From an uncultured Acidobacteriota bacterium (GTDB lineage: Bacteria; Acidobacteriota; Polarisedimenticolia; J045), in contig CAVPDB010000013.1 in the NCBI GenBank assembly GCA_963702545.1, positions 90,118 through 154,117 of the forward strand: DNA of 64,000 nucleotides, written 5' to 3'. Below are positions 7,744 through 55,922 of the stretch, in pieces. Below the pieces are notes generated by a model. It searched no databases. It was not told where the DNA came from and saw nothing but the letters and a program-made list of their open reading frames with translations. Numbering within the stretch: the stretch's first letter is position 1; every line of letters begins with the position of its first letter. The position numbers were made by a program, and so were the translations under genes.

Positions 7744-7928
7744 CCCGCTGCCGCCGCGCGGTTAGCCCCTCGCCCCCCCGATCCGTCCCTCCGATTCGCC
7801 GTTCCGGCCGGCTTATCGAGAAAAATAGGCGTGTTTCCGTTGAACCCCGCTCCCTCCCGGGAGTACGGTTTCCCTGCAGAGGAGTCAACCGGCCGACCGG
7901 GGGGCAGTTCGGGCAGGGAGGAGGGTCC

Positions 7929-8357
7929 ATGCCGGAACTGGTATTCGACGAGGTTCTCGAGCAGGCCGGGTTCCGGCCCACTCGACAAAGACGGGCCGTC
8001 TACGAGCACCTCGAGGCGATGCACGGTCATCCCACCGCGGAGGACGTCTTCCACGCGGTGCGGATCGAGTTGCCGCGGATCAGCCTGGCGACCGTGTACA
8101 AGGCGCTCGACTCGCTCGTGGAGTCGGGCGTGGCGCAGAAGATGAGCGGCGCCGACGGGACGGCGCACTTCGAGTCCCGCGTCGACGAGCACTTCCACGC
8201 CCGCTGCCGCGCGTGCAACCGAATCGTCGACGTCGAGGCGCTGCCCGAGTTCCACCGCTGCGTCGACAAGATCCGCACCGCGGGCTTCACGATCGAGCGG
8301 GCCCGGCTCGAGCTGACCGGGGTCTGCGAAGTCTGCGCGCGTCAGCACCACAACTGA
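7929..8357 (+). CDS. Fur-family metalloregulator (Fur/Zur/PerR type, subfamily not assignable)
   Basis: 142 aa. Winged-helix N-terminus (RPTRQRRAVYEHLEAMHGHPTAEDVFHAV..ISLATVYKALDSLVESG) and two CxxC pairs (CRACN, CEVCA), as in Fur-family proteins. Confidence 0.85.
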   Translation: MPELVFDEVLEQAGFRPTRQRRAVYEHLEAMHGHPTAEDVFHAVRIELPRISLATVYKALDSLVESGVAQKMSGADGTAHFESRVDEHFHARCRACNRIVDVEALPEFHRCVDKIRTAGFTIERARLELTGVCEVCARQHHN

Positions 8358-8477
8358 CGCGGCGCCGCGCGTCGCGCCGGGGCGTCCCGGGCCGGCCTGG
8401 CGCCGGCGGGTGCGGCTGTTTCGGGTGACCCGCGCAACCGATCCGGGTTAAAGTCCCCGCCTCCCGGGAGGCGAAGG

Positions 8478-9761
8478 GTGGCGCAGCCGCTGCACGTCCG
8501 GATGCTCGTCGGCGCCGCCGCCGGCCTTGCGCTGGGGGTGGCCGCGCACCTGCTGCTCGACGGCACCCCGTTCCTCGACGCCGCGATCCGCTTCGTCGCC
8601 CAGCCGGTCGGCCAGGTCTTCCTGCGGCTGCTCTTCATGCTGGTCCTGCCGCTCGTCTTTTCGTCGCTGGTGCTCGGCGTGACGGAGCTGGGGGACGTGC
8701 GGCGCGTCGGTCGGGTCGGCCTCAGGACGCTGGCCGTGACGGTCGTGGCCTCGACGATCGCGGTCGGGATCGGGGTCACGCTGGTCAACCTGCTGCGGCC
8801 CGGCGCGGGGCTGCCCCCCGAGACGCGGGCCCGCCTGCTGGAGGGGGCGGCCGAGCGCAGCGGCGCGCTGCCCGCCGTGACGGGCGCGCGCGGCGGGATC
8901 GACCTGCTCGTGCAGATGGTCCCGGACAACCCGCTCCGCGCCGCCGCCAACGGCGACATGCTGGCGGTGATGGTCTTCGCGCTGCTGTTCGGGATCGGCC
9001 TGTCGACGGTCCGGACCGAGGGGGCGCGCCGGCTGCTGGAGGTGATCCAGGGGCTCTACGACGTCACGATGCGGCTGATCGGCTGGGTGATCCGGCTGGC
9101 GCCCTACGGCGTGGCCGCGCTGCTGTTCGTGCTGGCAGCGCAGCTGGGCTACTCGGTGCTGGGGCAGTTGGCGCGCTACGTCGGCGTGGTCCTGCTGGCG
9201 CTCGGGCTGCAGCTCGTGGTGGTCTACTCGCTGCTGGTCCGGTTCGGCGGCGGGATGAGCCCGCGCGCCTTCTTCCGGGGGAGCGAGGAGGCGATGCTGA
9301 CCGCCTTCTCGACCGCCTCCAGCAACGCCACCCTGCCGACCGCGCTGCGCGTCGCCGAGACGGAACTGGGGCTCCCGCCGCGAATCAGCCGCTTCGTCCT
9401 GACGATCGGGTCGACGGCCAACCAGAACGGCACCGCGCTGTTCGAGGGGGTCACCGTCCTGTTCCTGGCGCAGTTCTACGGCGTCGAGCTGACGCTGGCG
9501 CAGCAGGTCCTGGTCAGCTTCGTGGCGATTCTGGGTGGGATCGGGACCGCGGGGGTGCCGGCCGGCTCGCTGCCGGTGGTGGCGATGATCCTGGGGATGG
9601 TCGGCATCCCGCCCGAGGGGATCGGCGTGATCCTGGGGGTCGATCGCTTCCTCGACATGTGCCGCACCACCGTCAACGTGACGGGGGATCTCGCCGTGGC
9701 GGTGGTGGTGGCGCGCGGCGAGCCGCGCGAGCCGGCGGCCGCGGTGCGGCCGGGCGCGTGA
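8478..9761 (+). CDS. dicarboxylate/amino acid:cation symporter (DAACS/GltP family)
   Basis: 427 aa, GTG start after GGGAGG. Family motifs SSNATLPTAL, NQNGTALFEG, GTAGVPAGSL and DRFLDMCRTTVNVTGD. Confidence 0.9.
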   Translation: MAQPLHVRMLVGAAAGLALGVAAHLLLDGTPFLDAAIRFVAQPVGQVFLRLLFMLVLPLVFSSLVLGVTELGDVRRVGRVGLRTLAVTVVASTIAVGIGVTLVNLLRPGAGLPPETRARLLEGAAERSGALPAVTGARGGIDLLVQMVPDNPLRAAANGDMLAVMVFALLFGIGLSTVRTEGARRLLEVIQGLYDVTMRLIGWVIRLAPYGVAALLFVLAAQLGYSVLGQLARYVGVVLLALGLQLVVVYSLLVRFGGGMSPRAFFRGSEEAMLTAFSTASSNATLPTALRVAETELGLPPRISRFVLTIGSTANQNGTALFEGVTVLFLAQFYGVELTLAQQVLVSFVAILGGIGTAGVPAGSLPVVAMILGMVGIPPEGIGVILGVDRFLDMCRTTVNVTGDLAVAVVVARGEPREPAAAVRPGA

Positions 9762-9898
9762 GCGGCGGGGCGGCGCGCCCCGCCCTGCTGCCGCGCGGCC
9801 GGCGCGGCGTGTTTCCGGCGGCGCTGCGGGTCGGTTAGACTCCATCCCCCGTCCGCTCCGGACGACGCGCCGACCCGGCGCAGGATCGGCCCGACCCG

Positions 9899-11245
9899 AT
9901 GCGTGGACCCGAGATCGACGCGAACGCCTCCGCGGCCCCGACCCCGGCCCGGCGCCCGTCCGGCTTCTCGAGCCTGGTGCTCCACCTCCACCCGCGCGCC
10001 GTCCCCGCCGCCGCGCTGCGCTTTTCGCTGACTTTCGGCCTCGGCGGGGCGGCGCTGGTGCTCTTCCTGCTGCTGGCGGCCAGCGGGGCGCTGCTGCTCG
10101 TGGCCTACGAGCCGTCGCCCGAGCGGGCCTACGGCACGGTGGCCGCGCTGGTCGACGAGGTCCGCTTCGGGGCCTTCATCCGCAACATGCACTACTGGTC
10201 CGCCAACGGGCTGGTTCTCGTGACGGTCCTGCACCTGCTCCGCGTCTTCTATCGCGGCGGCCACCTGCCACCGCGCCGCGGCAACTGGATCGTCGGCGTG
10301 CTGCTGCTGCTGCTGGTCGTCGCCAGCGCCTTCACCGGCTACCTTCTGCCGTGGGATCAGCTGGCCTTCTGGGCGGTGACGATCAGCACGGGGATGCTGG
10401 AGTACGTCCCGCTGGCCGGCAGTGTGCTGATGCGCGCCGCGCGCGGCGGCGCCGAGATCGGCCCGACGACGCTGGCGCGCTTCTTCGTGCTGCACGTCGC
10501 GATCCTGCCGATCGCGCTGCTGATGCTGCTGGCCTTCCATTTCTGGCTCGTGCGCAAGGTCGGCGGCGTGATCCTGCCGCGGGGCGTCGGGACCGACGCC
10601 GCGCCGCGCGGCCCGCTGGTCCCGACCTCGCCCGGCCTGACGCAGCGCGAGGGGGTCGTCGCGCTGGTGGTCGTGGCCGCCGTGCTGCTGCTCGCCGCGG
10701 TCGCCAACGCGCCGCTGCTGGCCGAGGCCAACCCGGGGATGAGCCCCAACCCGGCCAAGGCGCCGTGGTACTTCATGGGGGTGCAGGAGCTGCTGGTCCA
10801 CCTCCACCCGCTGTTCGCGGCCTTCGTGATCCCGCTGGCGGCGCTGGTCCTGCTCTTCGCCCTGCCCTCGCTGGCGGGCGGGGCGAGCCCGTCGGGGCTC
10901 TGGTTCGAGTCGCCGCTCGGCGCGCGGCTCGCCGGCTGGTCGGCCCTCGCGGGTGCGCTGCTCTGCGGCGCGGCGATCGTGCTCAACGAGCCGCTCCGCC
11001 GCGCGCCGCCGTGGATCCCGGCGCTGCCGCCGGAGTTGCGCGGCGGCCTGCTGCCGGCGCTCGCGCTGGCGGGCGCCGTCGCGGCCGTCGGCTTCGTGGC
11101 GAAGCGGCGGGGCGCGAACCGGATCGAGTCGATCCAGGCGATGTTCAGCTTCGTGCTGGCCGCGTTCGTGGTGCTCACCGCGACCGGCGTCCTGTTCCGC
11201 GGCCAGGGGATGGCGTTGAGCTGGCCGTGGACGCCGCCGGCGTAG
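9899..11245 (+). CDS. cytochrome b (fused b6-like N-terminal domain plus subunit-IV-like C-terminal domain)
   Basis: 448 aa. Two His pairs on transmembrane helices (RNMHYWSANGLVLVTVLHLL and FFVLHVAILPIALLMLLAFHFW) and the PWDQLAFWAV motif of bc/b6f-type cytochrome b. Confidence 0.9.
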   Translation: MRGPEIDANASAAPTPARRPSGFSSLVLHLHPRAVPAAALRFSLTFGLGGAALVLFLLLAASGALLLVAYEPSPERAYGTVAALVDEVRFGAFIRNMHYWSANGLVLVTVLHLLRVFYRGGHLPPRRGNWIVGVLLLLLVVASAFTGYLLPWDQLAFWAVTISTGMLEYVPLAGSVLMRAARGGAEIGPTTLARFFVLHVAILPIALLMLLAFHFWLVRKVGGVILPRGVGTDAAPRGPLVPTSPGLTQREGVVALVVVAAVLLLAAVANAPLLAEANPGMSPNPAKAPWYFMGVQELLVHLHPLFAAFVIPLAALVLLFALPSLAGGASPSGLWFESPLGARLAGWSALAGALLCGAAIVLNEPLRRAPPWIPALPPELRGGLLPALALAGAVAAVGFVAKRRGANRIESIQAMFSFVLAAFVVLTATGVLFRGQGMALSWPWTPPA

Positions 11246-43028: not shown

Positions 43029-43785
43029 ATGTCCGCGCGGCTGCTGTTCGCGGACGAGCGGCTGGTGGCGCTCGACAAGCCGGCGGGGCTCTCGCTCGCC
43101 ACGCCGGCCCGCGATCCGGGCGCGCGCGGTCCGGCGGCTGGTCGAGGCGCTTCCGGCCGCGGTGCGCCGCGAGGAGGCGCTCGAGCCGGACGCGCTGTAC
43201 CTGGTGCACCGGCTCGACGTCGGCACGACCGGCGTCGTCCTGCTCGCGCGCGACGCCGCGACGCACCGCGCGCTGGCGGTGGCGCTCGGCGGCCGGCGGA
43301 TCGGGAAGCTCTACCTCGCGCTCTGCTGGGGGCACCCGCGGCCGCGCGACGGGCGGTACGACGCGCCGCTCGGCCCCGACCGCGCCGACCGGCGGAAGAT
43401 GCGCGTCGATCCGGCGGGACGGCCCGCCGCGACCCGCTACCGCGTGCTGGCCGCGCCGCCGCACGCGGCGCTGGTCGAGCTGCGGCCGGAGACCGGGCGG
43501 ACGCACCAGATCCGCGTCCACCTCGCCCACGCCGGCCACCCGATCGTGGGAGACGACTTCTACGGGGGGCCGCGCCACCGCGGCCTGCGGGACGCCGCGC
43601 TGCGCGCCGCGCTCGCGCCGGACCACACCTTCCTGCACGCGTGGCGGCTGGAACTGCCGGAGGACCTGGGGCCGGTGATCACGGCACCGCTGCCGGCGGA
43701 CTTTGCGGCGGCGCTCGACCTGCTGGGAGTTCCGCCGCCAGCGCTGCCGCCCGGCGTCAGGCCGGAAGGGCCAACCGCCCGCTGA
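43029..43785 (+). CDS. RluA-family pseudouridine synthase (one frame break)
   Basis: The N-terminus MSARLLFADERLVALDKPAGLSLA is in one frame (an alternative start lies at 42987). The catalytic core LYLVHRLDVGTTGVVLLARD...GRTHQIRVHLAHAGHPIVGD is in the next frame. The junction is in the GCGCGCG stretch near 43125. Confidence 0.8.
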
Positions 43786-43851
43786 CGGCCGTGCGGAAAC
43801 CCCAGCGAACCAACAAATCGGGACGAGGAAAGAGGGACAGCGACCGATTCC

Positions 43852-44493
43852 CTACTCGGACGAGATCAGTCCGGAGCGGATCGCGAACCGCACCAGGCCC
43901 GGGACGTCGTGGATCCCGAGCCGCTCCATGATCTGGGCGCGGTGGGTCTCGACCGTCTTGATCGACAACTCCAGGTCGGCCGCGATCTCCTTGGTCGAGC
44001 GCCCCTCGGCGATCAGCTGCAGGACCTCGCGCTGGCGCGGGCTCAGGCCCCCGAGCGGGTCGGCCGCGGGGAGTTCGCCCCGCAGGTAGGAGCTGACGAC
44101 CTGCTGGGAGATCGACGGGCTGAGGAACGTCCCGCCCCGGCCGACGGCCTCCAGCGCGGCCTGCAGGTCCGACGCGGCCGAGTCCTTCAGCAGGTAGCCC
44201 GCCACGCCGGCCCGCAGCGCCTGGGCGACGTAGGTCTCGCCGGCGTGCATGGAGAGCACGATGACGCGGGTGCGGGGCGAGGACTCCCGGACCCGCGCCG
44301 CGACCTCGAGCCCGTTGAGGCCGGGCATCGTGATGTCGAGCAGGGCGATGTCGGGGTGGTGCCGCTCGATCAGCTCGAGCGCCTCGCGCCCGTCGCCCGC
44401 CTCGGCGACCACGAGCACGCCGGTGATCGACTCCAGCAGCGCGCGGATCCCGCTGCGCACCAGGTGGTGGTCGTCGGCGAGGATCACCTTCAC
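43852..44493 (-). CDS. NarL/FixJ-family response regulator
   Basis: 213 aa. Receiver domain (MKVILADDHHLV...LLDITMPGLNG) and LuxR-type HTH (LSPRQREVLQLIAEGRSTKEIAADLELSIKTVETHR). Confidence 0.95.
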   Translation of the reverse strand: MKVILADDHHLVRSGIRALLESITGVLVVAEAGDGREALELIERHHPDIALLDITMPGLNGLEVAARVRESSPRTRVIVLSMHAGETYVAQALRAGVAGYLLKDSAASDLQAALEAVGRGGTFLSPSISQQVVSSYLRGELPAADPLGGLSPRQREVLQLIAEGRSTKEIAADLELSIKTVETHRAQIMERLGIHDVPGLVRFAIRSGLISSE

Positions 44494-44503
44494 GAAGGCC
44501 TCC

Positions 44504-47500
44504 TCAGGCGCTCCATGGTAGCTCAGCCCGGATCGCCGTCCCCCGCCCCCGCGCCGAAGACAATGTGACCCGTCCGCCGAGGGCCTCGGCCCGCTCCCGC
44601 ATCCCCGTGATCCCGAAGTGCTCGCCGCCGGTCGCGGCGGCGGCGGCGTCCGGATCGAAGCCCTGTCCGTCGTCCTCCACCTCGATCCACAGGCGCCGGT
44701 CCTCGGCCCGCAGCCGGACCGCGACCCGCGTCGCGCCGGCGTGCCGGACCACGTTCGTCATCGCCTCCTGCACGATCCGGAAGGCGGCGATCTCCAGCTC
44801 CGCGGGCAGCCGCTCGGGCAGGCCGTCGTCCGAGAAGGTGACCGCCAGCCCGGTCCGGTCGGCCTGGGCTGCGAGGTGCCCGCGCAGCGCCGCGATCAGC
44901 CCCAGCTCGTCCATCAGCGGCGGGCGCAGTTCGAACGAGAGCGCGCGCACCAGCTTGATCATCCGGTCCAGCAGCCCGACCGTGTCGGCCAGTCGCCGCG
45001 GCGCCGTGCCGTCGGGCCCCAGCTTCTGCAGCAGCTGGATGTTGATCTTGGCGGCGGTCAGCAGCTGGCCCATCTCGTCGTGCAGCTCGCGGGCGATCGC
45101 CTTGCGCTCCTCCTCCTTGGCCGCCTCGAGCCGCCGCGTCAGGGCCTGCAGCCGCTCGAAGGCGGACTGCAACTCCTCCTCCTTGGATCGCGCGACGCGC
45201 AGCGCGGCCTCGCGCTGGACCTGCAGCTCGGCCAGCTCGCGATTGCGGCGCTCGAGGCGCCGGGTCCGGACCTGGTGCCAGGTGATCGCTCCCGCGGCCA
45301 GCGCGACCGCGCTGAGGATCCGGAACCAGGCGGTACGGTAGAAGGGGGGGACGACCTGGACCGTCAGCGCCAGCGGCGGGTCGCTCCATTCGCCGCGGGC
45401 GCCGCGGGCGCGCAGTTCCAGCCGGTGCGCGCCCGGCGCCAGGTCGGTGAAGGTCAGCTCGCGCCGTGCGCCGAGATCGAGCCATTCGCCCCCGGCCACG
45501 CGGTACGCATAGCGGTGGCGCCGGTGCGAGTCGTAGTCGACGACCGCGAACGAGACCGTCAGCGGTTCGCCGTGGCGGATCGAGACCGAGGCGGGCGGCC
45601 ACGGCGATCCCGGCGCCGCGGCCGGCCCCTTCAGCGTGCGCAGCGCGGTCAGCGCGAGCCGCGCCGGTGGCGGGGTGGGGAAGGGCGTGCCGCGCGGGAT
45701 CGCGACCAGGCCGTTGAGCAGGCCGACGTAGATCGCGTCGTGGGCCCGGACCGCGGCGGACAGGTTCCCCTCGGAAGAGGGCAGCCCGTCGGCGACGTCG
45801 TAGCTGACGAAGGTGCGGCGCAGCGGGTCGAAGCGTGTCAGGCCGCGCCGCGTCGCGAGCCACAGGCTCCCGTCGTCGTCCTCGACGATCGACATCACGT
45901 TGTCGTTGACCAGGCCGTCGCGGGCGGTGATTCGCTCGAAGCGGGCGCCGCGCTCCGGGTCCAGGCGCAGCAGCCGCGCCAGCCCGCCGCCGGCGCTGCC
46001 GATCCAGATGTTGCCGGCGCGGTCCTCCAGGATCGAGGTGACGTACTGGTGGGCCAGCGCCTCGGGGTCCTGCGGGTCGACCGGGATCCGCTGCACCCGC
46101 AACGTGGCCCGGTCGACCAGGTTCACGCCGCCGGAGCGGGTCCCCATCCAGAGCCGCCCGGCACGGTCCTCGTACAGCGTCGTGACGAAGTTGTCGCTCG
46201 GCGTCGCCGGGTCGTCCGGCCGGTTCACGATCCGCTCGAAGCCGCGCCCGTCCTCCCGCAGGCGCGCCAGCCCGCCGCCGCCGGTCCCGATCCAGACCCG
46301 GTCGTCGCGGTCGATCAGCAGGGCGTAGGCGTAGCCGCGCGGCAGCGAAGCGGGATCGGACGGGTCGTGGATGAAGCGCGTCAACGCGCCCGAGGCCGGG
46401 TCGAAGCGCGTCACGCCGTCGGTCGCCGCGAGCCAGAGCCTCCCGGCACGATCCTCGCCGATCCGCAGCGTTCCGTCCGCGACCGGCCGCCCCTGATCGC
46501 GCAGCGGGATGCTCTGGAACCCCGGGCCGCCCGGCTCGAAGACCTCGATCCCGCCGCCGAAGGAGCCGATCCAGAGCCGCTGCCGCCGGTCCTCGAACAG
46601 CGCGGTGATGTCGCCGTAGCTGGGCGAGCCGGCGCCGCTCCGGGCGCGGATCGCGCGGAACGGGCCGGCCGGCTGGAGCAGGCGTGCGAGCCCTCCGCTC
46701 GTCGTGCCGAGCCAGAGCGAGCCGCCCGCGTCCAGGGCCAGGGCGGTGATCCGCTCCTCGGTCTGCGCGTCCTCCTGCCGCTCCCCCGTGGAAGCGGATC
46801 CGGTACTCGACGAACGGCGGCTCGTCCACCCGCAGCAGCCCGACGAACGTGCCCAGCCAGACCGGGCCGGCCGGCGTCGCGGCCAGCGCCGGGACCACGC
46901 TCTCGAGCAGCGAATCGTCCTGTCCCGGCCGCACCGCCGCGCGCAGGGTCGAGCCCGTCCGCGGATCGTGCACCACCGCGCCGAAACGCCCCCCGATCCA
47001 GAGCCGCCCGCTCGCGTCGAAGGCCAGCGCGAAGGCGTCGGCCGACGCGGCAGCGCGCTCGCTGCCCGGCGGGATCGGGAGCGGCCGGGCCGTCCCGGAC
47101 GCGGGGTCGAAGCGCAGGACCCAGTCGCCGATCGTCGCGATCCAGAGCGAACCGTCCGGTGCGGGCAGCAGCGCGCAGATGTACTCCGCGCCGGAGCGCG
47201 GGTTCGGCTTCGGCAGGACGGGCACCCGCTGCGCGCGGCCGGTCGCCGGATCGAAGAGGTTGAGGCCCGATTGCGTCCCGACCCACAGCCGGCCCTCCCC
47301 GGCCTCGGCGATCGCATAGACGCTGTCGTGGCTGAGCGTGCCGGCGTCCCCCCGTCGTGGCGGAAGGCGGTGACGCCGCCCGAGGCGCGGTCGAGCCGGT
47401 TCAGGCCGCCGGCGTTGGTCCCGACCCACAGGTTGCCCGCGCGGTCCTCGAAGACGGTCCGGACCCAGTTGTCGGCGAGCGAGGCCGGGTCGCCGACGAC

Positions 47501-47761
47501 GTGCTGGTGAAGGTCGAAGGCGTAGCCGTCGAACGAGAACAGCCCCTCGCGCGTTCCGACCCAGAGCAGCCCGCTGCGGTCGAAGTAGAGCGCGTTGATC
47601 GTCTCGGCGAACAGCCCTTCGCGCGGGCCGTGGCGCTCGAGCGGTGGGGTCGGGAGGGTCGGCTGCGCGAGCGCCGCCGCGGGCGCCGCGAGCACGGCCA
47701 GGGCCAGCGCCAGCACGACGGGCGCGAGGCCCGCGAACTGCCGCCGCGCCGCGCCGCGCAT
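44504..47761 (-). CDS. propeller-type (Y_Y_Y-like) sensor histidine kinase, HisKA_3 class (two compensating frame breaks)
   Basis: Signal peptide, then many repeats of the type EDRAGNLWVGT..GGL.R. TM helix, H-box ELHDEMGQLLTAAK, and ATPase domain. The true reading is frame A 47761 to ~47350, frame B ~47350 to ~46786, then frame A to 44504. The breaks lie in the C run at 47348-47353 and the C run at 46783-46787 (plus-strand coordinates). Confidence 0.85.
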   Translation of the reverse strand: MRGAARRQFAGLAPVVLALALAVLAAPAAALAQPTLPTPPLERHGPREGLFAETINALYFDRSGLLWVGTREGLFSFDGYAFDLHQHVVGDPASLADNWVRTVFEDRAGNLWVGTNAGGLNRLDRASGGVTAFRHDGGTPARSATTASMRSPRPGRAGCGSGRNRASTSSIRRPAARSGCPSCRSRTRAPARSTSARCCPHRTVRSGSRRSATGSCASTPRPGRPGRSRSRRAASALPRRPTPSRWPSTRAGGSGSGGVSARWCTIRGRARPCARRCGRDRTIRCSRAWSRRWPRRRPARSGWARSSGCCGWTSRRSSSTGSASTGERQEDAQTEERITALALDAGGSLWLGTTSGGLARLLQPAGPFRAIRARSGAGSPSYGDITALFEDRRQRLWIGSFGGGIEVFEPGGPGFQSIPLRDQGRPVADGTLRIGEDRAGRLWLAATDGVTRFDPASGALTRFIHDPSDPASLPRGYAYALLIDRDDRVWIGTGGGGLARLREDGRGFERIVNRPDDPATPSDNFVTTLYEDRAGRLWMGTRSGGVNLVDRATLRVQRIPVDPQDPEALAHQYVTSILEDRAGNIWIGSAGGGLARLLRLDPERGARFERITARDGLVNDNVMSIVEDDDGSLWLATRRGLTRFDPLRRTFVSYDVADGLPSSEGNLSAAVRAHDAIYVGLLNGLVAIPRGTPFPTPPPARLALTALRTLKGPAAAPGSPWPPASVSIRHGEPLTVSFAVVDYDSHRRHRYAYRVAGGEWLDLGARRELTFTDLAPGAHRLELRARGARGEWSDPPLALTVQVVPPFYRTAWFRILSAVALAAGAITWHQVRTRRLERRNRELAELQVQREAALRVARSKEEELQSAFERLQALTRRLEAAKEEERKAIARELHDEMGQLLTAAKINIQLLQKLGPDGTAPRRLADTVGLLDRMIKLVRALSFELRPPLMDELGLIAALRGHLAAQADRTGLAVTFSDDGLPERLPAELEIAAFRIVQEAMTNVVRHAGATRVAVRLRAEDRRLWIEVEDDGQGFDPDAAAAATGGEHFGITGMRERAEALGGRVTLSSARGRGTAIRAELPWSA

Positions 47762-47765
47762 CGCC

Positions 47766-50267
47766 CTAGCCCTCGAACTGCACCCGGCCGCCCTGCAGCC
47801 GCTCCTCGATCAGCGCCCGGACCCGCCGGTTGAAACTCTCCGCGGCCTCCCCCTCGCGCGGCGTCACGGGCTCGAGGTAGGTCACGCGGACGCGGCGCAG
47901 CAGGCGCGGGAACCAGCGGCCGGCCGGCAGCACGCGGTGGGTGCCGTCGATCACGACCGGGACGACCGGGACGTTGAGCTCGCGGGCCAGGATCGCGTAG
48001 CTCTCCTTGAAGGTGCCGAGCTGGCCGCCGGCCGAGCGCGTCCCTTCCGGGAAGATCACGACGTTGTTGCCGCGCCGCAGCGCCGCGGCGACCTTCTGCA
48101 GCGACTGCAGGATCCCCTCGTCGGGCGTCGCCACGATCACGTTGCTGCGGTCGGCCAGGAACTTCTTCCAGGCCCCGCCGAAGTGCTTGGCCTTGGCGTA
48201 GTAGATCGTGCGCCAGACGGCGCTCTTGCGCATCGCGGCGTTGACGAACATCCCGTCGAAGAAGCTCTGGTGGTTGGGGGCGATGATGCAGGGCCCCTCG
48301 GGCAGGCGATCGCCGCCCTGCGCGTCGGTGCGGAACGCGAGGCGCACGAAGAGGTCGGAGGTGAAGACGATCAGGCGGTGCAGCAGGCTGCTGTGCGGCA
48401 GCGCGGGCGGCCGCGCCGGCTTCAGGATCTCGGACCACGAGAAGGCCGGCCCATCGCCCTTGTCGGTCTTGTACTGGGCGACGAAGCCGGCCAGGTCGCC
48501 GGCGGTCGCGAACTCGCCCAGCCGCGCCTCCGGGATCGCGACCCCGAACGCCTGCGTCAGGAAGGCGGCCAGCTCGACGCGCCCCAGCGAGTCGACGCCC
48601 AGATCGGCGTCGAGGCGGCTCGCGGCGCGCACCGGCTGGCGGTACTGCCGCTCGAGGAACGCGGCGATCTTCGCCAGCGTCGGGTCGCCGCTGTCGGCGG
48701 CGGCGGCGTCCGGCGCGGCCGCGGCCTCGCGGATCGCGCCCGCGATCGCCGCGAGCTGGTGGCGCCGCAGCTTGCCCAGCCGGGTGCGCGGCAGCTCTTC
48801 GCGCGCCAGCGTGACCCTCGTGACGCGCTTGTAGGGCGCCACGGTCGCGTTGTACGGCTCGAGCACCTCGCGCCGCAGCCACGCCTCGGCGGCGCCGCGG
48901 TCGGCGATCGGCAGCCCATCCCAGTTGGGCACCACCAGCGCGTGGAGCGTCTCGCCGTCGAGGAACACGCCGGCCTCGCGCACGGCCCCGGTCGCGCCCT
49001 GCAGCGCGGCCTCGATCGGCTGCGGGTTCACGTTCTTCCCGCTCGGCAGGATGATGATCTCCTTCAGCCGCCCGGTGATCGTCAGGAACCCCTCGTCGTC
49101 GAACTGGCCCAGGTCGCCGGTGTGCAGCCAGCCGTCGCGGATGATCGCCGCGGTCTCCTCCGGCCGGTTGTAGTAGCCCAGCATCATGTTCGGGCCGCGG
49201 GTCACGATCTCGCCGTCGACCGTCTTCACCTCGGTGCCGAAAAGGGCCTGGCCGCAGGTCCCCAGCTTGATCCTGCCGATCCGCGGGAAGGTGATCATCG
49301 GCGCGCACTCGGTCATCCCGTAGCCTTCGCAGACCGTGAAACCCAGGACGTCGAAGATCCGCGCGGTTTCCCGGCTCAGCGCGGCGCCGCCGCTGATCAG
49401 GTGCTGCAGCTTCCCACCCAGCTTGCGGTGGACCGAGCCGAAGATCAGCCGCGAGAAGCGCGGCGAGCCGACCTTCGCCGCCAGTGCGAACAGCGTGCGG
49501 GCCAGGCCGCTGGCCTCGATCCGGTCGCGGAAGGCGTGGCCCAGCACGTCGTAGAAGCGCGGCACGCCGACGATCGTCGTGACCTGGTTGCGCTTGAGCG
49601 TCGCGACCAGCTCCTCGCCGGCCAGCGAGGTCGCGAAGACGATCGTCGAGCCGCCGTAGAGCGGCGCGACCAGGCAGCCGGCCAGCGGCAGGACGTGGTG
49701 CAGAGGGAGCAGCAGGAAGATCCGCGAGTCGGGGGTGTAGTAGCCCTCGTTCACGACCGCGGTCACGTTGGCCAGGATGTTGCCGAAGGAGAGCATCACC
49801 CCCTTGGGGCTGCCGGTCGTGCCCGAGGTGTAGACGATCGCCGCCAGCGCGGCCGGGTCGGCCCCGACCGGCTCGGCGTCGGTCCGCCCGTCCGCCGCGG
49901 GCTCGTGCGGACGCTCCAGGTCGAGCAGCAGCGGCTTGTGCCCGGCCAGCGCCAGCGCCTTCTCGACGACCGGCCGCGTCTTCGCCGAGCAGTAGATCGC
50001 GCCCGGCGTGCAGTCGTCGAGGACGTAGGCGACCTCCTCCGCCGTCGACATGAAGTCGACCGGGACCAGGACCTTCTTCGCGCCCCAGATCGCGTAGGCG
50101 GCGTAGACCCACTCGAGCCGGTTCTCGGAGAAGACGACGATGCGCTCGCCGGCGCCGTCGAGGTCCTTCGCCCAGGCCCGGGCGCGGCGCAGCAGGACGT
50201 CGTAGGAGACGCGCTCGTCGCCCCAGACCAGGGCGGTCGTCGGGCGGGACTCGAGGAGAGTGGGCAT
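47766..50267 (-). CDS. three-domain fusion: acyl-AMP/CoA ligase + carrier (ACP-like) domain + lysophospholipid (AGPAT/PlsC-type) acyltransferase
   Basis: 833 aa.
- Adenylation motifs YTSGTTGSPKGV, EGYGMTEC, TGDLG and GRLKEIIILPSGKNVNP.
- Phosphopantetheine site context DADLGVDSLGRVELAAFL.
- Acyltransferase HX4D box APNHQSFFDG and the FPEGTRS box.
- The stop lies 4 bp from the kinase start. Confidence 0.85.
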   Translation of the reverse strand: MPTLLESRPTTALVWGDERVSYDVLLRRARAWAKDLDGAGERIVVFSENRLEWVYAAYAIWGAKKVLVPVDFMSTAEEVAYVLDDCTPGAIYCSAKTRPVVEKALALAGHKPLLLDLERPHEPAADGRTDAEPVGADPAALAAIVYTSGTTGSPKGVMLSFGNILANVTAVVNEGYYTPDSRIFLLLPLHHVLPLAGCLVAPLYGGSTIVFATSLAGEELVATLKRNQVTTIVGVPRFYDVLGHAFRDRIEASGLARTLFALAAKVGSPRFSRLIFGSVHRKLGGKLQHLISGGAALSRETARIFDVLGFTVCEGYGMTECAPMITFPRIGRIKLGTCGQALFGTEVKTVDGEIVTRGPNMMLGYYNRPEETAAIIRDGWLHTGDLGQFDDEGFLTITGRLKEIIILPSGKNVNPQPIEAALQGATGAVREAGVFLDGETLHALVVPNWDGLPIADRGAAEAWLRREVLEPYNATVAPYKRVTRVTLAREELPRTRLGKLRRHQLAAIAGAIREAAAAPDAAAADSGDPTLAKIAAFLERQYRQPVRAASRLDADLGVDSLGRVELAAFLTQAFGVAIPEARLGEFATAGDLAGFVAQYKTDKGDGPAFSWSEILKPARPPALPHSSLLHRLIVFTSDLFVRLAFRTDAQGGDRLPEGPCIIAPNHQSFFDGMFVNAAMRKSAVWRTIYYAKAKHFGGAWKKFLADRSNVIVATPDEGILQSLQKVAAALRRGNNVVIFPEGTRSAGGQLGTFKESYAILARELNVPVVPVVIDGTHRVLPAGRWFPRLLRRVRVTYLEPVTPREGEAAESFNRRVRALIEERLQGGRVQFEG

Positions 50268-50388
50268 CGGCGGGCGCTCCCGGGGGCGGCGGGAGTATGG
50301 AGCGGGGCCGAACGGCGGTCTATCGCGCGGGGCGGATACGGCCCGGCCCGGGGACCGTGGGGATGTTAAGACCCTTCAGATGAGGAAC

Positions 50389-50417
50389 TTGACCGATGTT
50401 CGACGACGCCGTACTAT
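50389..50417 (+). promoter_or_regulatory. sigma70-like promoter predicting a leaderless mRNA for the DUF4143 ATPase
   Basis: TTGACC (50389-50394), 17 nt spacer, TACTAT (50412-50417), in a locally AT-rich patch. The ATG at 50424 begins 7 nt after the -10 hexamer, and there is no Shine-Dalgarno sequence. Confidence 0.5.
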
Positions 50418-50423
50418 AGTCAT

Positions 50424-51647
50424 ATGTTCCTGCCGCGCCTGCTCGAAGCCCCGCTGCTCGAGATCTCCTCCGGCTTCCCGGCGCTCCTCCTCACGGGGGC
50501 GCGGCAGGTCGGGAAGACCACCCTGCTCCGGCACGCCGCGGAGCGGGAAGGCCGCGCCCGGCGCGTCGTCTCGCTCGACGAGTTCGGACCGCGCGGCGCC
50601 GCGCTCGAGGACCCCGAGCTCTTCCTTCAGAGGTATCCGCCGCCCGTGCTGATCGACGAGGTCCAGCACGCGCCCCGGCTGCTCGAGGCCCTCAAGCCGG
50701 CGATCGACCGCGGCGCGCCCGCTGGATCCTACTGGCTGAGCGGATCGCAGCCCCTTCCCCTGATGCGCGGCGTCTCCGAGTCGCTGGCGGGGCGGGTCGG
50801 CGTGCTCGCGCTGCTCGGGCTGTCGCTGGCCGAGCGCTCCGGATGGCCGCTGTCCGGGCCCCCCTTCCGTCCCGATCGCCCGCGGCGCGGCGCGCTGCCG
50901 CGGCTCGGGCTGCTCGAAGTGTTCGAGCGGATCCTGCAGGGGGGGCTGCCCCGGCTCACGCACGCCGACGCTCCGCCGCGCGAGGTCTTCCTCGATTCCT
51001 ACCTGCAGACGTACATCGAGCGCGACGTGCGCCTGCTGTCCCCGATCGGCGACCTCGCACGGTTCCAGCGCTTCCTCCGGGTGGCGGCCTCCCGCGTCGG
51101 GCAGCTCCTGAACGTCGCGGACATGGCCCGCGACGTGGGCGTGGCCCCGAGCACGGCCCACGAGTGGCTGCACCTGCTCGAGGCGACGGGCCAGGTCTAC
51201 CTCCTGCGCCCCTACTTCGAGAAGATCGGCAAGCGGCAGATCAAGTCGCCGAAGCTCTACTTCCTCGACACCGGCATCGCGGCCCACCTGGCCGGATGGA
51301 GCGCACCGGAGCCCGCCTCGCGGGGCGCGATGGCGGGGGCGCTGTTCGAGAACCTCGTCGTCACCGAGATCCTGAAGAGCTACCGCCATCGGGCCCGCGA
51401 GGCGCCGATCTGGTACTTCCGCGACAAGGAGCGGCACGAGGTCGACCTGCTGGTCGCCGAGGACGGGTTGCTGTTTCCGGTGGAGGCGAAGCTGACCGCC
51501 TCCCCGGGGCCGGACGACTTCGCGGGTTATCGGGCGCTCCAGCGGGCCGGGGCGCCGCTCGGTCCGGGCGCGGTGATCTGCCTGGTGCCCGAGCGCACCC
51601 CGCTGGGACGCGACCTGGATGCCGTGCCGGTGACGGAGCTGGGCTAG
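50424..51647 (+). CDS. AAA-family ATPase with DUF4143-type C-terminal domain
   Basis: 407 aa. Walker A LLLTGARQVGKTTLL, Walker B-like PPVLIDEVQ, and a C-terminal region typical of AAA_14/DUF4143 proteins (KLYFLDTGIAAHL...). Confidence 0.8.
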   Translation: MFLPRLLEAPLLEISSGFPALLLTGARQVGKTTLLRHAAEREGRARRVVSLDEFGPRGAALEDPELFLQRYPPPVLIDEVQHAPRLLEALKPAIDRGAPAGSYWLSGSQPLPLMRGVSESLAGRVGVLALLGLSLAERSGWPLSGPPFRPDRPRRGALPRLGLLEVFERILQGGLPRLTHADAPPREVFLDSYLQTYIERDVRLLSPIGDLARFQRFLRVAASRVGQLLNVADMARDVGVAPSTAHEWLHLLEATGQVYLLRPYFEKIGKRQIKSPKLYFLDTGIAAHLAGWSAPEPASRGAMAGALFENLVVTEILKSYRHRAREAPIWYFRDKERHEVDLLVAEDGLLFPVEAKLTASPGPDDFAGYRALQRAGAPLGPGAVICLVPERTPLGRDLDAVPVTELG

Positions 51648-52314: not shown

Positions 52315-54853
52315 CTACTCCTTCACCAGCTCGATGTCGTCGAGCGCGACCCGCCCCTCGGCCGAGCCGTAGACCGCGCCGAAGTCGAAGCGGATCGAGA
52401 GCACGTTCCCCAGGTCGAGATTCGCGCCGTCGCGCAGGAAGTCGGTCAGCCGGATGCGGACCGTCTCGAACTCGTTCTGCCAGCCGGTCCCGGCGCCGTA
52501 GCCGGTGCGCTGGTACGGCTCCTCGATCCCGCCGCCGAAGGCCCCGATCCCGATCGCGCTGCGGCGGCCGCCGGTGTCGGCCAGCGTGACCGTGAAGGTC
52601 AGGTCGCCCAGCGCCGCGATCGTCCGCGGGTGCCGCGTCATCTGCGTCGCCCGGAACGACAGGAAGGTGTCGTCGCGGAAGTCGCGCGCCACGGGGATCA
52701 CGTCCAGCTCGTAGAAGCCGGGGCTGCCCTTGGGCGAACTCGAAGACCGCGCCGCGGCCCAGGTCTTCGCTCCGCCCGCGGGTCATCCCGTTCATCGGCT
52801 CGCTGCCGGTCCACTCGAACGAGCCGCCGGTCTCCTGCTCGCGCTGCTCGGCCAGCGCGGCGACGGTGGCGGTCACCGCGCCCCCCGAGCTGCTCGTGCC
52901 CGGCGCGGGCTGGGACTGGTAGTCGTCGACCACGAAGCTGCGCCGGGCCGGCGGCTCGCGCAGCTCGTTGACGACCACCGTCCCGGCCGCGACGCCCAGC
53001 GGCCGGAACGCCTCCCACTGGCGCCAGAAGATGTCCTTGGCCGGCGCGAAGCGCTCGACGAACTGCTTGAGCAGCGCCAGCTGGACGACCTTCTGGACGC
53101 GCTGGGCCTCCTCGCGCCCGATCGCGCTGCCGGCCGGGCCGCTGAAGTCCTCGAACCCGCAGCAGTTGAAGTCGTTGTGGTCGGCGCCGTGGACGTAGGT
53201 CGACTGCCGCGCGCCGGTCGCCCGCTCGTAGAGCCCGAACGACTGCGCGACCGCGTTGTTGGGGCAGCCGCAGACGTCGCCGTCGGCCGAGCCGTAGAGC
53301 AGGTGGTAGGGGACGCCGTGCGGGTCGGACTGCGCCGGCCCGAGGAAATCGGTCGGCGCGATGCTGCTGATCACCGCGATGTCCCGCGCGCTGTACTGCG
53401 CCGCCGGCCAGGCCTCGTCGACCAGCCGGTCGTAGGCCCGCGCCACCCCCTCGCCGCCGCGGCTGTGGCCGATCCAGGCGATCCGGGTGTCGTCGATGTG
53501 GCCGTTCAGGACCCCGCCGCCCAGCGTGGCCTGCTGCGCCAGGATCTTGTCCGTGAAGGTCAGCGTGGTGGTGGAGGCGGTCTCGATCCCGGGGCCGGTG
53601 TTGTTGTCGTGCGACATCGCGATGAAGCCGTAGGACGCGAGGTGCCGGCCCAGGAAGTCGTACCAGTCGTAGCAGTGGCCGTTGCCGTGGCTGATCACGG
53701 CCAGCGGGTAGGTCCCCGTCGCGCCCGGATCGTTCAGGACCGAGGGGTAGTAGATCCGCATGTCGTCGTTGCCGCTGCCCGAGCAGTGGGGCGGCTCGGG
53801 GCCGAGGTCGTCGAACTGCGAGACCGCCAACGGGCCGGGCTGGGTCAGGTCGCGCAGCACCGTGAACCCCGGGCCGTCGGACAGGCCGTCGGCCAGTTCG
53901 CCGGAGTCCAGCGTCCCGTTGCGGTTGCAGTCGAGCGCCAGGTCGTAGCCGCGGCCGATCGCGGTGCCGTCGACCGCCGAGAGCGACGCGCTGCCGGACA
54001 GCGCGAAGGTGTTGTCGCGCACCCCGCCGGCCACGAAGGTCCGCGTCTCGGGGGCGCCGCGCACGTCGGCCAGCGCGGTGCCGGCGCACCATGCGGCGGC
54101 CGAGCGCTTGGCCAGGACGTAGACGTCGCAGGTCTGTCCCGTCACGGCCGGGTGCGTCGTCGGGTCGACCGCCAGCTCGACCGGCGTCCCCTGGTTCGCG
54201 GCGGCCGTGAACTCGAAGTGCGGGTAAGAGAGGAGGCTGCGCCCGGCCAGCTCGGCGGCGGCGCCGACCCCGGCGTCGGGGTCGACGACCGCGAAGCAGC
54301 CGCCGCCCGGCCGGCAGCTGTCGATCGTGCACGGGTCGCCGTCGTCGCAGCCGATGCTGGCGTACTCGCAGCCGCCGGTCGCCTCGACGCAGCGGTCGGC
54401 GGTGCAGTCGTCACCGTCGTTGCAGGTGATCGGCGCGCCGGCGACGCAGACCGGGGTCACGGTGCCGCAGGTCTCGACGCCGTCGCAGTTGATCCCGTTG
54501 TCGCACTCGGCGTTGCTGACGCAGCGCTGCGGGTCGTCGACCAGGTAGAAGCTGATCGGGGCGATCCCGGCCGCGACCGGCTCCTCGTAGAAGGTCTGCT
54601 GGGTCGCGCCGGCCAGCCACGCCGGCCGCACGATGTCGGTCGGGTCGGGGGAGCGGTAGACGCCGTAGGGCCCCGATCCGGCCTGCCAACTGACCCGGAC
54701 GGTGCTGCCGGTCCGGGTCACGCGGACCGAGCCGGGGGCGGGGTCGGCCAGGGCGGCCGGGGGGCCGGCCAGGAGCAGCGCGGCCAGCGGGAACACGAGC
54801 AAACAGCGGGCGTTCCGGCCGGACGGCGCGGCCGGGGCGCGGTGACGGGTCAC
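52315..54853 (-). CDS. secreted Cys-rich-repeat / alpha-beta hydrolase (PAF-acetylhydrolase/chlorophyllase-like) protein (one frame break)
   Basis: The GTG at 54853 follows GGGAGAG. Signal peptide present. Cys-rich repeats (CDNGINCDGVETC, CNDGDDCTADRC, CDDGDPCTIDSC). Ca-loop-like DCNRNGTLDSGE. Hydrolase core PLAVISHGNGH and nucleophile elbow IGHSRGGEG. The frame breaks in the G run at 52720-52723 (plus-strand coordinates). The corrected sequence reads ...FEFAQGQPGFYELDVIPVARDF... and runs to the stop at 52315. Confidence 0.75.
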
Positions 54854-54970: not shown

Positions 54971-55922
54971 ATGGCCGACAAGAAAATCATCGCCGTCATC
55001 GGCGCCACGGGCGCCCAGGGCAGCGGGCTGGTTCGGGCGATCCTCGCCGACCCCAGCGGCGAATTCGCCGCCCGTGCGATCACCCGCGACGCGAACAGCG
55101 ACAAGGCGAAGGAACTGGCGAAGCTCGGCGCCGAGGTCGTGGCCGCCGACGTCAACGACCTGGAGAGCCTGAAGCGGGCCTTCGCCGGCGCCTACGGCGC
55201 GTTCTGCGTCACCTTCTTCTGGGAGCACTTCTCCGCCGAGAAGGAGACCGCTCAGGCCACCGCGATGGCCGAGGCGGCCAAGGCCGCCGGCGTCCAGCAC
55301 GTGATCTGGTCGACGCTCGAGGACACGCGCAAGTGGGTCCCGCTGTCCGACGACCGGATGCCGACGCTGCAGGGGAAGTACAAGGTCCCGCACTTCGACG
55401 CCAAGGGCGAGGCCGACGCGGTCTTCGCGCGGCTCGGCGTGCCGACGACCTACCTGCTGACGTCGTTCTACTGGGAGAACTTGATCCACTTCGGGATGGG
55501 TCCAAAGAAGGGGCCGGACGGCGTGCTGGCCTTCACGATGCCGATGGGGGACGCGAAGCTCCCCGGGATCGCGGCCGAGGACATCGGGCGCTGTGCCTAC
55601 GGCATCCTCAAGGGTGGTCGGACGCTGGTCGGCCAGCGCGTCGGGATCGCGGGCGAGCACCTGACCGGCGCGGAGATGGCGGCTGGGTTGACCCGGGCGC
55701 TGGGCCAGGAGATCCGGTACGTCGCGGTCGAGCCCGACGGTCTACCGCGGCTTCGGCTTCCCGGGCGCCGACGACATCGGGAACATGTTCCAGTTCAACC
55801 GCGACTTCTCGAAGGACTTCTGCGCCGCGCGCCCGATCGACGGCTCGCGCGCGCTGAACCCGCAGCTGCAGTCGTTCGACACCTGGCTCGCGAAGAACAA
55901 GGACCGGATCCCGCTCGGCTGA
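54971..55922 (+). CDS. NmrA-like NAD(P)-binding protein (one frame break)
   Basis: Rossmann motif IAVIGATGAQGSGLVRA. The frame breaks at about 55739 (extra G after GAG CCC GAC). The continuation VYRGFGFPGADDIGNMFQFNRDF...LAKNKDRIPLG ends at the TGA at 55920-55922. Confidence 0.8.

Follow-up and report, generated by a model that had tools for sequence, protein, structure and literature searches.

A 64,000-nt stretch of DNA from an uncultured Acidobacteriota bacterium (hereafter, the window) encodes a protein in which a fatty-acid ligase, an acyl carrier and an acyltransferase are fused, and directly downstream of its gene lie those for a histidine kinase and a response regulator. This arrangement raises two questions: which reaction would such a fusion carry out, and does the two-component system belong to the way it works?

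Domain organization of the fusion protein

Translated from its ATG, the minus-strand fusion gene specifies 833 amino acids, and profile searches recovered the ligase, the carrier and the PlsC-type acyltransferase that a first-pass annotation had read from the sequence, with all Pfam matches above their gathering cut-offs:

47766..50267, minus strand: ligase-carrier-acyltransferase fusion gene, 833 aa (ORF from ATG, translation, Pfam)
49170..50240, minus strand: AMP-binding N-terminal domain, aa 10-366 (Pfam, 231 bits)
48753..49061, minus strand: AMP-binding C-terminal subdomain, aa 403-505, with K499 (Pfam AMP-binding_C and AMP-binding_C_3)
48471..48683, minus strand: acyl carrier domain, aa 529-599 (Pfam PP-binding, NCBIfam acyl_carrier)
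48588-48590, minus strand: codon of the phosphopantetheine-attachment serine S560 (DSL motif)
47949..48320, minus strand: PlsC/LPLAT-type acyltransferase domain, aa 650-773 (Pfam PF01553, 80 bits)
48270-48272 and 48255-48257, minus strand: H666 and D671 of the acyltransferase HX4D dyad
48036-48053, minus strand: acyltransferase FPEGTR box

Compared with its relatives, the gene shows no frameshift and is intact; the corresponding protein of another locus (P0001, locus L001) is 97% identical over all 833 residues in one frame. In line with the carrier domain that the first-pass annotation had proposed, the carrier serine motif is recognized by the PP-binding model (residues 551-596; 30.2 bits, with the cut-off at 20.8), and NCBIfam acyl_carrier matched the same region (E 2.4e-7). 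AlphaFold models backed these domain assignments: the predicted carrier region superposed on many type II ACPs (TM about 0.8), and the ACP-acyltransferase half was modelled as one compact unit (pLDDT 87.8, pTM 0.84), with the acyltransferase fold extending from about aa 606 to 826. Among 18 homologues with 43-77% identity to the fusion, the DSL, HX4D and FPEGTR boxes (D559-S560-L561, N665-H666-Q667-S668...D671 and F739-P740-E741-G742-T743-R744) were invariant, as were the catalytic lysine K499 and the P-loop-like YTSGTTG.PKG box (YTSGTTGSPKG at aa 146-156 of the fusion).

No NAD-binding or reductase family was matched by the 833-aa protein in Pfam or NCBIfam. Given, in addition, that the carrier and the acyltransferase are only ~50 residues apart—and with the AMP-binding domain beginning at residue 10—the protein leaves no space for a reductase, whose absence had been correctly anticipated. 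Transmembrane helices were not predicted in the fusion.

The adenylating domain found its nearest solved relatives in CoA ligases (8wev, E 2.8e-41; FadD13, 3e-30) rather than in the fatty-acyl-AMP ligase FAAL 3pbk (E 5e-22), and its nearest NCBIfam models are CoA ligases as well. Judged by sequence it thus appears to resemble CoA ligases more than FAAL, and may therefore release acyl-CoA; the operation independent of CoA and soluble ACP that the first-pass annotation had suggested would be conjecture. Together with the name given to the family at JGI, 'long-chain acyl-CoA synthetase', this would be in line with an ordinary long-chain acyl-CoA synthetase joined to an acyltransferase that takes acyl-CoA or soluble acyl-ACP, the carrier being auxiliary or vestigial. 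We consider such an enzyme quite unlikely, however: the DSL serine and the carrier helices around S560 are unchanged from Acidobacteriota to Bacteroidales and Gammaproteobacteria, arguing for a working carrier, and the compact prediction of the ACP-acyltransferase pair also speaks against it.

A large tri-domain family

The fusion is a member of a large, already noticed, biochemically uncharacterized tri-domain family. All 120 homologues listed were near full length and carried the same domains (identity 43-97%, coverage 71-100%). At least 585 candidate stretches were confirmed in species-representative genomes, the ~820-aa architecture being present in hundreds of species from the Bacteroidales, Ignavibacteria, Calditrichia, Desulfobulbales and Acidobacteriota, and roughly 90 genomic loci were collinear with the fusion. 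Cultured carriers include Marinilabilia salmonicolor, Alkaliflexus imshenetskii, Thermophagus xiamenensis and Alkalitalea saponilacus; full-text searches of the literature turned up no assay of any family member.

A second tri-domain subfamily, of about 915-990 aa, occurs mainly in Pyrinomonadaceae (L036/P0121 type), a family of subdivision 4, from which elbD homologues have been reported. Its Pfam domains are the three of the fusion, identically ordered; however, its members are longer and only about 29% identical to it, go by no more specific names than 'AMP-binding protein' or 'long-chain acyl-CoA synthetase', and in the case of L036 adjoin a YegS/DAG-kinase-like gene. The Pyrinomonadaceae type is a branch separate from that of the fusion.

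The first-pass annotation had likened the protein to ElbD minus the reductase and had taken a link to the two-component genes to be undescribed for this architecture. The novelty was overstated: homologues lacking the fatty-acyl reductase (FAR) domain are already in the literature, and the architecture occurs in hundreds of species. In the part of PMC9131029 that cites Lorenzen 2014, almost all ElbD-like homologues in other phyla are described as having no FAR domain, and lysophospholipid acyltransferases fused to FAAL-like domains are listed in PMC8460268. Both sources place such proteins in several phyla and assign no function to them. Their architecture is exactly that of the protein in the window, which is distinguished from the published group solely by its lineage-specific neighbours.

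Comparison with Aas and PlsC

Escherichia coli Aas combines the same two kinds of catalytic domain—an ANL-type fatty-acid adenylating domain and an LPLAT acyltransferase with HX4D and PEG motifs—and both halves align with the fusion (28% identity, E 6e-28 for the AMP domain; 26%, E 6e-10 for the acyltransferase domain). As had been pointed out, the order is permuted, with the acyltransferase first in Aas. Aas lacks a covalent carrier and recruits AcpP; in the fusion, an ACP domain is inserted. Aas also lacks a helical segment of ~30-35 residues in the adenylating domain of the fusion (roughly aa 253-285; helices at 254-282 in the predicted model), and the fusion scored 126.9 bits against an equivalog cut-off of 886 for Aas (NCBIfam PRK08043). 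Unlike E. coli aas, which shares an operon with lplT, the fusion gene has no linked transporter gene: no LplT-like or MFS gene was found among its neighbours here or in L001 and L095. E. coli Aas keeps an ACP tightly bound, loads it with free fatty acid and works through it (PMC13170283); a covalently fused ACP is therefore a natural equivalent.

PlsC/AGPAT-type proteins are recognized by an HX4D dyad, an EGTR box and the alpha/beta fold of PlsC, and the fusion has all three. The best PDB fold match of its acyltransferase region was Thermotoga maritima PlsC (5KYM; E 1.9e-11, TM 0.68 on the target, rmsd 3.3 A, 22% identity), a 1-acyl-sn-glycerol-3-phosphate acyltransferase with the HX4D and EGTR motifs in common. 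PlsC is a stand-alone enzyme that takes acyl-ACP or acyl-CoA in trans, in contrast to the fusion with its own carrier. Among NCBIfam models, the best matches were the acyltransferase parts of Aas-type models (PRK08633, E 2.6e-18; PRK06814; PRK08043), with the E. coli PlsC-type model PRK15018 far weaker (E 5.6e-4).

At the motif II position the family differs from PlsC. Canonical motif II is F-x-x-R, whereas the family has a specific Y-A-K-x-x-H, with K692 and H695 invariant in the 18 homologues; the acceptor, therefore, need not be lysophosphatidic acid or lyso-PE. A different hydroxyl- or amine-bearing lipid, such as a lyso-aminolipid or a glycolipid, could take the place of a lysophospholipid, and this would agree with weak matches of the acyltransferase region to OlsA and GlsA (lyso-ornithine- and lyso-glycine-lipid O-acyltransferases) and with the many carriers among Bacteroidota, a group known for aminolipids. 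Yet Aas-type/AGPAT models outscored OlsA and GlsA by at least 10 orders of magnitude in NCBIfam, and PlsC was the best fold match, such that we regard an acceptor of this kind as a distinctly unlikely one.

Comparison with ElbD

ElbD of Myxococcus xanthus (Q1DC43), likened here by its published domain description, has the same acyl-CoA synthetase (ACS)-ACP-acyltransferase series as the fusion. The first-pass annotation had placed a reductase inside this series, between ACP and acyltransferase, which we correct here: the NAD(P)-dependent, FAR-like reductase of ElbD is N-terminal, followed by ACS, ACP and acyltransferase (PMC9131029; bioRxiv 10.64898/2026.06.23.733905). The ACS and ACP activities of ElbD have been confirmed in vitro, whereas acyltransferase activity was not detected in vitro (PMC9131029).

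The fusion might accordingly serve an ether-lipid pathway as its ligase-ACP-acyltransferase core, with a fatty-acyl reductase encoded elsewhere acting on the carrier-bound chain. Besides the three domains that ElbD has after its reductase, two reports would fit such a role: elbD variants whose split falls between the reductase and the adenylation domain occur in Acidobacteria, including soil members, and in Poribacteria (bioRxiv 10.64898/2026.06.23.733905), and some Acidobacteria make alkyl ether lipids (bioRxiv 10.64898/2026.06.23.733905; PMC11868695). Against it stand the lack of a reductase domain in the fusion itself and the low identity of the Pyrinomonadaceae-type subfamily to it. Moreover, while ElbD sits in an elbA-E operon, no gene resembling FAR, elbB (HAD-like phosphohydrolase), elbC or elbE (epimerase/dehydratase) adjoins the fusion, either in the window or in relatives, and in Pontiella, which has ElbD homologues, ether lipids were not detected (PMC11868695). 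We therefore hold an ElbD-like role to be very unlikely.

The neighbouring two-component system

The genes around the fusion are arranged as follows:

43852..44493, minus strand: NarL/LuxR-type regulator, 213 aa, Response_reg and GerE (Pfam, NCBIfam)
44504..47761, minus strand: sensor histidine kinase, 1085 aa (ORF, Pfam)
46775..46779, minus strand: second indel in the kinase gene, one base more than in L001 and L004; original frame restored
47348..47353, minus strand: first indel in the kinase gene, a 1-bp deletion; C6 on the plus strand (G6 coding), seven in L001, L004 and L005
47762..47765, minus strand: 4-bp spacer, GGCG, separating the TAG stop of the fusion gene from the ATG of the kinase (sequence)
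50268..50423, no strand assigned: divergent intergenic region, 156 bp, between the fusion gene and the AAA_14/DUF4143 gene (sequence, L001 gene calls)
50424..51647, plus strand: AAA_14/DUF4143 gene

The kinase comprises a signal peptide/TM segment, Reg_prop propellers, Y_Y_Y, a further TM segment, HisKA_3 and HATPase_c (Pfam). With HisKA_3 and HATPase_c in the kinase, and REC and a GerE/LuxR HTH in the regulator (98% identical to its L001 orthologue), the pair shows the features that define the NarL class. Although the kinase ORF is open, judging by three orthologues its residues about 137-328 are read in the wrong frame, and the alternative frame of this region encodes intact propeller blades. 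Comparison with a 95%-identical intact orthologue, along with the frame switch seen in a three-frame tblastn pattern, located the disruption between about 47351 and 46779, where two compensating 1-bp indels flank it; near the second of these, the gaps in a blastn alignment with L005, which is more divergent, do not amount to one clean 1-bp insertion. Frameshifts were present in four of ten genes matched to L001, and because three other nearby genes (NmrA-like, PETase-like and pseudouridine synthase) are also affected, the disruption of the kinase frame in the window is most likely an assembly artefact.

The close spacing noted earlier was borne out—4 bp from fusion to kinase (5 bp in L001) and 10 bp from the kinase stop to the regulator start, all on the minus strand—and a consensus scan of the minus strand from 43400 to 50800 yielded no terminator-like site. 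Because of the 4-bp gap in particular, fusion, kinase and regulator are probably co-transcribed in a narrow acidobacterial clade, and some regulatory coupling is therefore possible in this clade. The 156-bp intergenic region is likely the promoter region of the transcript; its sole sigma-70-like consensus match faces the plus-strand gene.

Could the fusion and the two-component system, then, work as a unit that remodels lipids under the control of a periplasmic or envelope signal? In addition to the tight, terminator-free spacing on a common strand, the three genes are neighbours in five distinct genomes, in two gene orders (fusion-kinase-regulator at 91-97% identity, kinase-regulator-REC-fusion at 77%). 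These five genomes, however, belong to one narrow clade that has kept flanking genes, too (M28 peptidase, pseudouridine synthase, aminotransferase and Tricorn). Adjacency to the kinase or regulator was confined to loci of at least 77% identity to the fusion: neither gene adjoined it in relatives at 66%, 61% and 58% identity, nor in any of about 70 loci at 66% identity or below. One clade in some 90 loci may be roughly what chance would produce in genomes rich in two-component genes. Periplasmic sensors with Reg_prop and Y_Y_Y modules, moreover, are best known as glycan sensors of Bacteroides, and the 'envelope sensing' of the first-pass annotation must be called speculation. Thus, the two-component link stands for the narrow clade and falls as a trait of the family; the adjacency is lineage-specific and not part of how the family works, and a dedicated regulatory unit seems to us unlikely.

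The fusion's neighbours in the window are AAA_14/DUF4143, kinase, regulator, pseudouridine synthase and M28 peptidase genes. Among 91 distinct loci, no neighbour was conserved across the tri-domain family, with the most widespread neighbour family at no more than 11. A lone gene without a conserved neighbour is in keeping with an enzyme that does not depend on a dedicated partner.

A proposed cis-carrier mechanism

On balance, and with a confidence slightly above even, we favour the fusion as a self-contained, Aas-like lysolipid-acylating enzyme with its own carrier, next to which the two-component genes are a lineage-specific feature. A mechanism in which the carrier acts in cis is a reasonable inference from the domains. 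The enzyme would be soluble or peripheral. Its N-terminal domain, of the long-chain acyl-CoA-synthetase type, would adenylate a free long-chain fatty acid; the acyl group would then move to the protein's own carrier domain, onto the phosphopantetheine arm at S560, from where the C-terminal domain, with its H666/D671 dyad, would pass it to a lyso-glycerolipid with a free hydroxyl group on the cytoplasmic side of the membrane. Functionally, such a protein would equal a circularly permuted Aas with a built-in ACP, acting in lysolipid repair or in the incorporation of scavenged fatty acids.

A more far-reaching version would make the whole family a CoA- and soluble-ACP-independent, cis-ACP analogue of Aas and the main fatty-acid salvage route in Bacteroidales, Ignavibacteria, Calditrichia, Desulfobulbales and some Acidobacteriota, with control by a periplasmic propeller-sensor two-component system added in the acidobacterial clade, so that the remodelling of membrane lipids would follow an external signal, possibly a glycan. 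We rate this combination as highly improbable.

Implications

The link to envelope sensing, which had made the finding look special, is unsupported beyond one narrow clade. Proteins with the tri-domain architecture are common in bacteria of sediment, gut and soil. BLAST surveys with ElbD as the query are used to infer the 'ether-lipid potential' of metagenomes (PMC11868695; bioRxiv 10.64898/2026.06.23.733905), and, going by the described domains of ElbD, may well pick up tri-domain proteins. If these are indeed Aas-like salvage enzymes with a built-in carrier, such surveys would overcount ether-lipid producers, and annotation would still be missing a widespread way of incorporating fatty acids that goes around FASII. 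Assigning the family biochemically would be useful, and, because cultured carriers exist, it is feasible.

Domain composition of the fusion protein

In the window, which has a G+C content of ~73%, the fusion gene and the two genes downstream of it share the minus strand.

47766..50267, minus strand, fusion gene (833 aa)
44504..47761, minus strand, ORF of the propeller-type histidine kinase (1085 aa)
43852..44493, minus strand, gene of the NarL-type response regulator (213 aa)

Pfam recognized four domains in the fusion protein, each scoring over its gathering cut-off.

Residues 10-366, AMP-binding (231 bits)
Residues 403-505, AMP-binding_C
Residues 551-596, PP-binding (30.2 bits; cut-off 20.8)
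Residues 650-773, Acyltransferase PF01553 (80 bits)

The PP-binding model thus identifies the carrier domain that the first-pass annotation had proposed from its DSL serine. A linker of ~50 residues joins it to the acyltransferase domain, no reductase family was matched by Pfam, and no transmembrane helix was predicted. In an alignment of the protein with 17 homologs (43–77% identity), the YTSGTTG.PKG box, K499, D559-S560-L561, N665-H666-Q667-S668..D671, and F739-R744 were invariant. The gene reads in a single frame across all 833 residues when compared with its relative at locus L001. This three-domain, reductase-less fusion is real, intact, and was correctly described at first pass.

ARAGORN made a single tRNA call, a 90-nt tRNA-Asp(GTC) at 48663-48752 (+), antisense inside the fusion gene. 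Since Rfam at gathering score detected no RNA family, tRNAs included, anywhere in the window, this call, made in GC-rich coding DNA, is probably spurious.

Comparison with ElbD and Aas

The fusion had been likened to ElbD, whose domain order was given as ligase-ACP-reductase-AGPAT. That order is wrong: the FAR1-like reductase of ElbD is N-terminal, with ACS, ACP, and an AGPAT-like acyltransferase coming after it, and in split variants the break falls between the reductase and the adenylation domain (PMC9131029; bioRxiv 10.64898/2026.06.23.733905). While ElbD has the same three-domain core, it also has the reductase and an elb context; our protein has neither and, failing on these two features, is set apart from ElbD by the description of the latter. 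Outside the phylum of ElbD itself, the FAR domain is missing from nearly every ElbD-like homolog (PMC9131029, citing Lorenzen 2014), FAAL-like domains fused with lysophospholipid acyltransferases have been listed (PMC8460268), and Pontiella possesses ElbD homologs although ether lipids were undetected (PMC11868695).

In its sequence, the adenylating domain is similar to CoA ligases. The best matches of known structure are feruloyl/fatty-acyl-CoA synthetases (8wev/8weu, E ~3e-41), with MenE, MatB, and FadD13 (the last at E 3e-30) among the others, as compared to E 5e-22 for the FAAL 3pbk. For the acyltransferase region, the top NCBIfam scores came from the acyltransferase parts of Aas-type models (PRK08633, E 2.6e-18; PRK06814, 6.5e-15; PRK08043, 1.1e-11); the generic AGPAT domain gave E 7e-17, whereas the E. 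coli PlsC-type model (5.6e-4), OlsA, and GlsA scored much lower. E. coli Aas aligns to the fusion protein over both halves, at 28% and 26% identity, with their order permuted. Relative to Aas the adenylating domain carries an extra helical segment (~residues 253-285), a feature characteristic of long-chain (FAA1/ACSL-type) synthetases. The E. coli enzyme binds ACP at a high-affinity site, charges it there with free fatty acid, and hands the acyl group on to lysophospholipids (PMC13170283).

The most economical model would therefore be a permuted Aas with its ACP fused in cis. By its domain chemistry, such an enzyme would adenylate a long-chain fatty acid, form a thioester on S560-phosphopantetheine and, at the membrane surface, transfer the acyl group to a lysolipid with H666 and D671 as catalytic residues. 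The motif II region has the sequence Y-A-K-x-x-H, in which K692 and H695 were invariant in the alignment, and for this reason the lysolipid acceptor is putative. Alternatively, the fusion enzyme might release acyl-CoA. For the steps of the permuted-Aas model, our full-text searches of the literature found no demonstration with any family member.

AlphaFold modeled the whole protein with moderate confidence (pLDDT 77.5, pTM 0.53). A fold search with this full-length model returned ANL enzymes and NRPS modules only and did not inform on the C-terminal half, so the ACP-acyltransferase half (residues 526-833; model mbb52a0930ed7) was modeled separately, with good confidence (pLDDT 87.8, pTM 0.84). 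In the latter, the carrier has the fold of type II ACPs (superposition at TM ~0.8), and the best fold match of the acyltransferase is Thermotoga maritima PlsC (5KYM, E 1.9e-11, rmsd 3.3 Å). The prediction places both domains in one compact unit, which hints at a docked ACP.

A widespread tri-domain family

A protein search with the fusion protein yielded 7956 matches at E ≤ 1e-10. The best 120 of these all possess AMP-binding and Acyltransferase domains (43–97% identity) and nearly all measure ~810–870 aa, a few being truncated or longer. A minority of the 120 lack a precomputed PP-binding match, and those of them that we aligned keep the invariant DSL. The databases give the proteins of this set no more specific name than 'AMP-binding protein' or 'long-chain acyl-CoA synthetase'. 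Judged by sequence, the fusion protein is a member of a known, functionally uncharacterized tri-domain family.

In a scan of species-representative genomes that used two acyltransferase motifs specific to the family, at least 585 stretches were confirmed, and the matches listed were family members only; a scan with generic motifs derived from the alignment returned mostly plain acyl-CoA synthetases. Among the matches listed are many from Bacteroidales (Marinilabiliaceae, Salinivirgaceae, Lentimicrobiaceae), as well as others from Ignavibacteria, Melioribacteraceae, Kapabacteria, Calditrichia, Desulfobulbales, some Gammaproteobacteria, and Acidobacteriota. Marinilabilia salmonicolor, Alkaliflexus imshenetskii, Thermophagus xiamenensis, and Alkalitalea saponilacus are cultured carriers.

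A second, distant branch (29–34% identity, 816–927 aa) has the same three domains. Its representative at locus L036 belongs to a large, mainly Pyrinomonadaceae subfamily, and a protein search with this member returned only that reductase-less subfamily. At L036, the tri-domain gene (7836-10619) immediately follows a YegS/DAG-kinase-like gene (6869-7814) that is split over two overlapping ORFs (DAGK_cat, YegS_C); a lipid-metabolism neighbor of this type is absent from the window's own family. In relatives at 61–66% identity, the fusion gene is preceded by a conserved gene for a 252–264-aa protein (loci L097, 7181-7939, and L098, 7189-7983; also L099), which lies 18–62 bp upstream of it and is adjoined by a divergent DUF4342 gene. 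The encoded protein has a hydrophobic, Ala-rich N-terminus and no Pfam match. No homologs of either gene were found in the window.

The two-component genes are neighbors in close relatives only

The fusion gene is separated from the kinase ORF by 4 bp (TAG-GGCG-ATG) and the kinase ORF from the regulator gene by 10 bp, bearing out the tight spacing reported at first pass; on the minus strand of 43400-50800, a consensus scan detected nothing resembling a terminator. Given this spacing, co-transcription of the three genes is likely in the window's clade. Their order is kept in relatives of 91–97% identity (L001/L002/L003, L004, L005), while a 77% identical relative (L095, 3401-10487) has, on a single strand, the kinase, the regulator, a standalone REC protein (127 aa), and then the fusion. 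The block has been rearranged inside the clade yet kept together. At L004 and L005, an extra receiver-like match follows the regulator, ~4.25 kb downstream of the fusion gene. A wider neighborhood—a Pel9A-like protein, an M28 peptidase, a pseudouridine synthase, an aminotransferase, and a Tricorn protease—is also common to these relatives, and the genomes with the adjacency therefore represent one clade with general synteny.

Two-component genes were absent near the fusion gene in relatives at 66%, 61%, and 58% identity, in Alkalitalea, in an Ignavibacteria MAG, and in another distant member. When the kinase core, the propeller region, and the regulator were searched by tblastn against all loci, no match adjoined the fusion gene in any of ~70 distinct loci of the family with ≤66% identity, a few of which had a receiver-like match >4.6 kb away. 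We also clustered every ORF that flanks the family member at 91 distinct loci: although a conserved partner was sought (phosphopantetheinyl transferase, LplT, reductase), no neighbor family occurred in more than 11 of the 91, arguing that the family member is a lone gene, and no LplT partner was linked to it. Hence, of the proposed operon link to envelope sensing, adjacency holds in close relatives (77–97%) and was seen at no locus at ≤66%. Functional coupling of the fusion gene with the two-component genes is possible, but finds no support here.

Frameshifts in the kinase and nearby genes

The kinase ORF is open over 1085 aa, but residues ~137-328 are R/S/P/G-rich nonsense, and a second minus-strand frame over the same DNA encodes proper propeller blades. 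The L001/L002 ortholog, 95% identical and of the same length, is in frame throughout. Through two 1-bp indels that compensate each other, the frame departs from that of relatives over ~190 residues of the propeller sensor, and three further genes are frameshifted.

47348-47353, C6 on the plus strand, kinase: G6 here versus G7 in L001, L004, and L005
~46777, kinase: one extra base versus L001 and L004; gaps versus the more divergent L005 are less clean
~55731-55738, plus strand, NmrA-like gene: single frameshift versus the L001 protein
~52721-52731, minus strand, PETase/chlorophyllase-like gene: single frameshift versus the L001 protein
~43124-43126, plus strand, pseudouridine synthase gene: single frameshift versus the L001 protein

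The L001 counterparts of the last three proteins are 94–97% identical. Frameshifts thus affect four of ten genes matched to L001, kinase included. As such a pseudogene density is unlikely for a free-living bacterium, they are probably assembly indel errors rather than biology. That the kinase is a true pseudogene with compensated frameshifts was judged less likely, since three more genes nearby are frameshifted.

Implications

The proposed envelope-sensing operon link, which had made this finding look special, is lineage-specific and confined to close relatives. Tri-domain proteins of this kind should not be taken as ether-lipid markers. The family is a candidate for cis-carrier fatty-acid salvage that is both widespread and accessible to assay.
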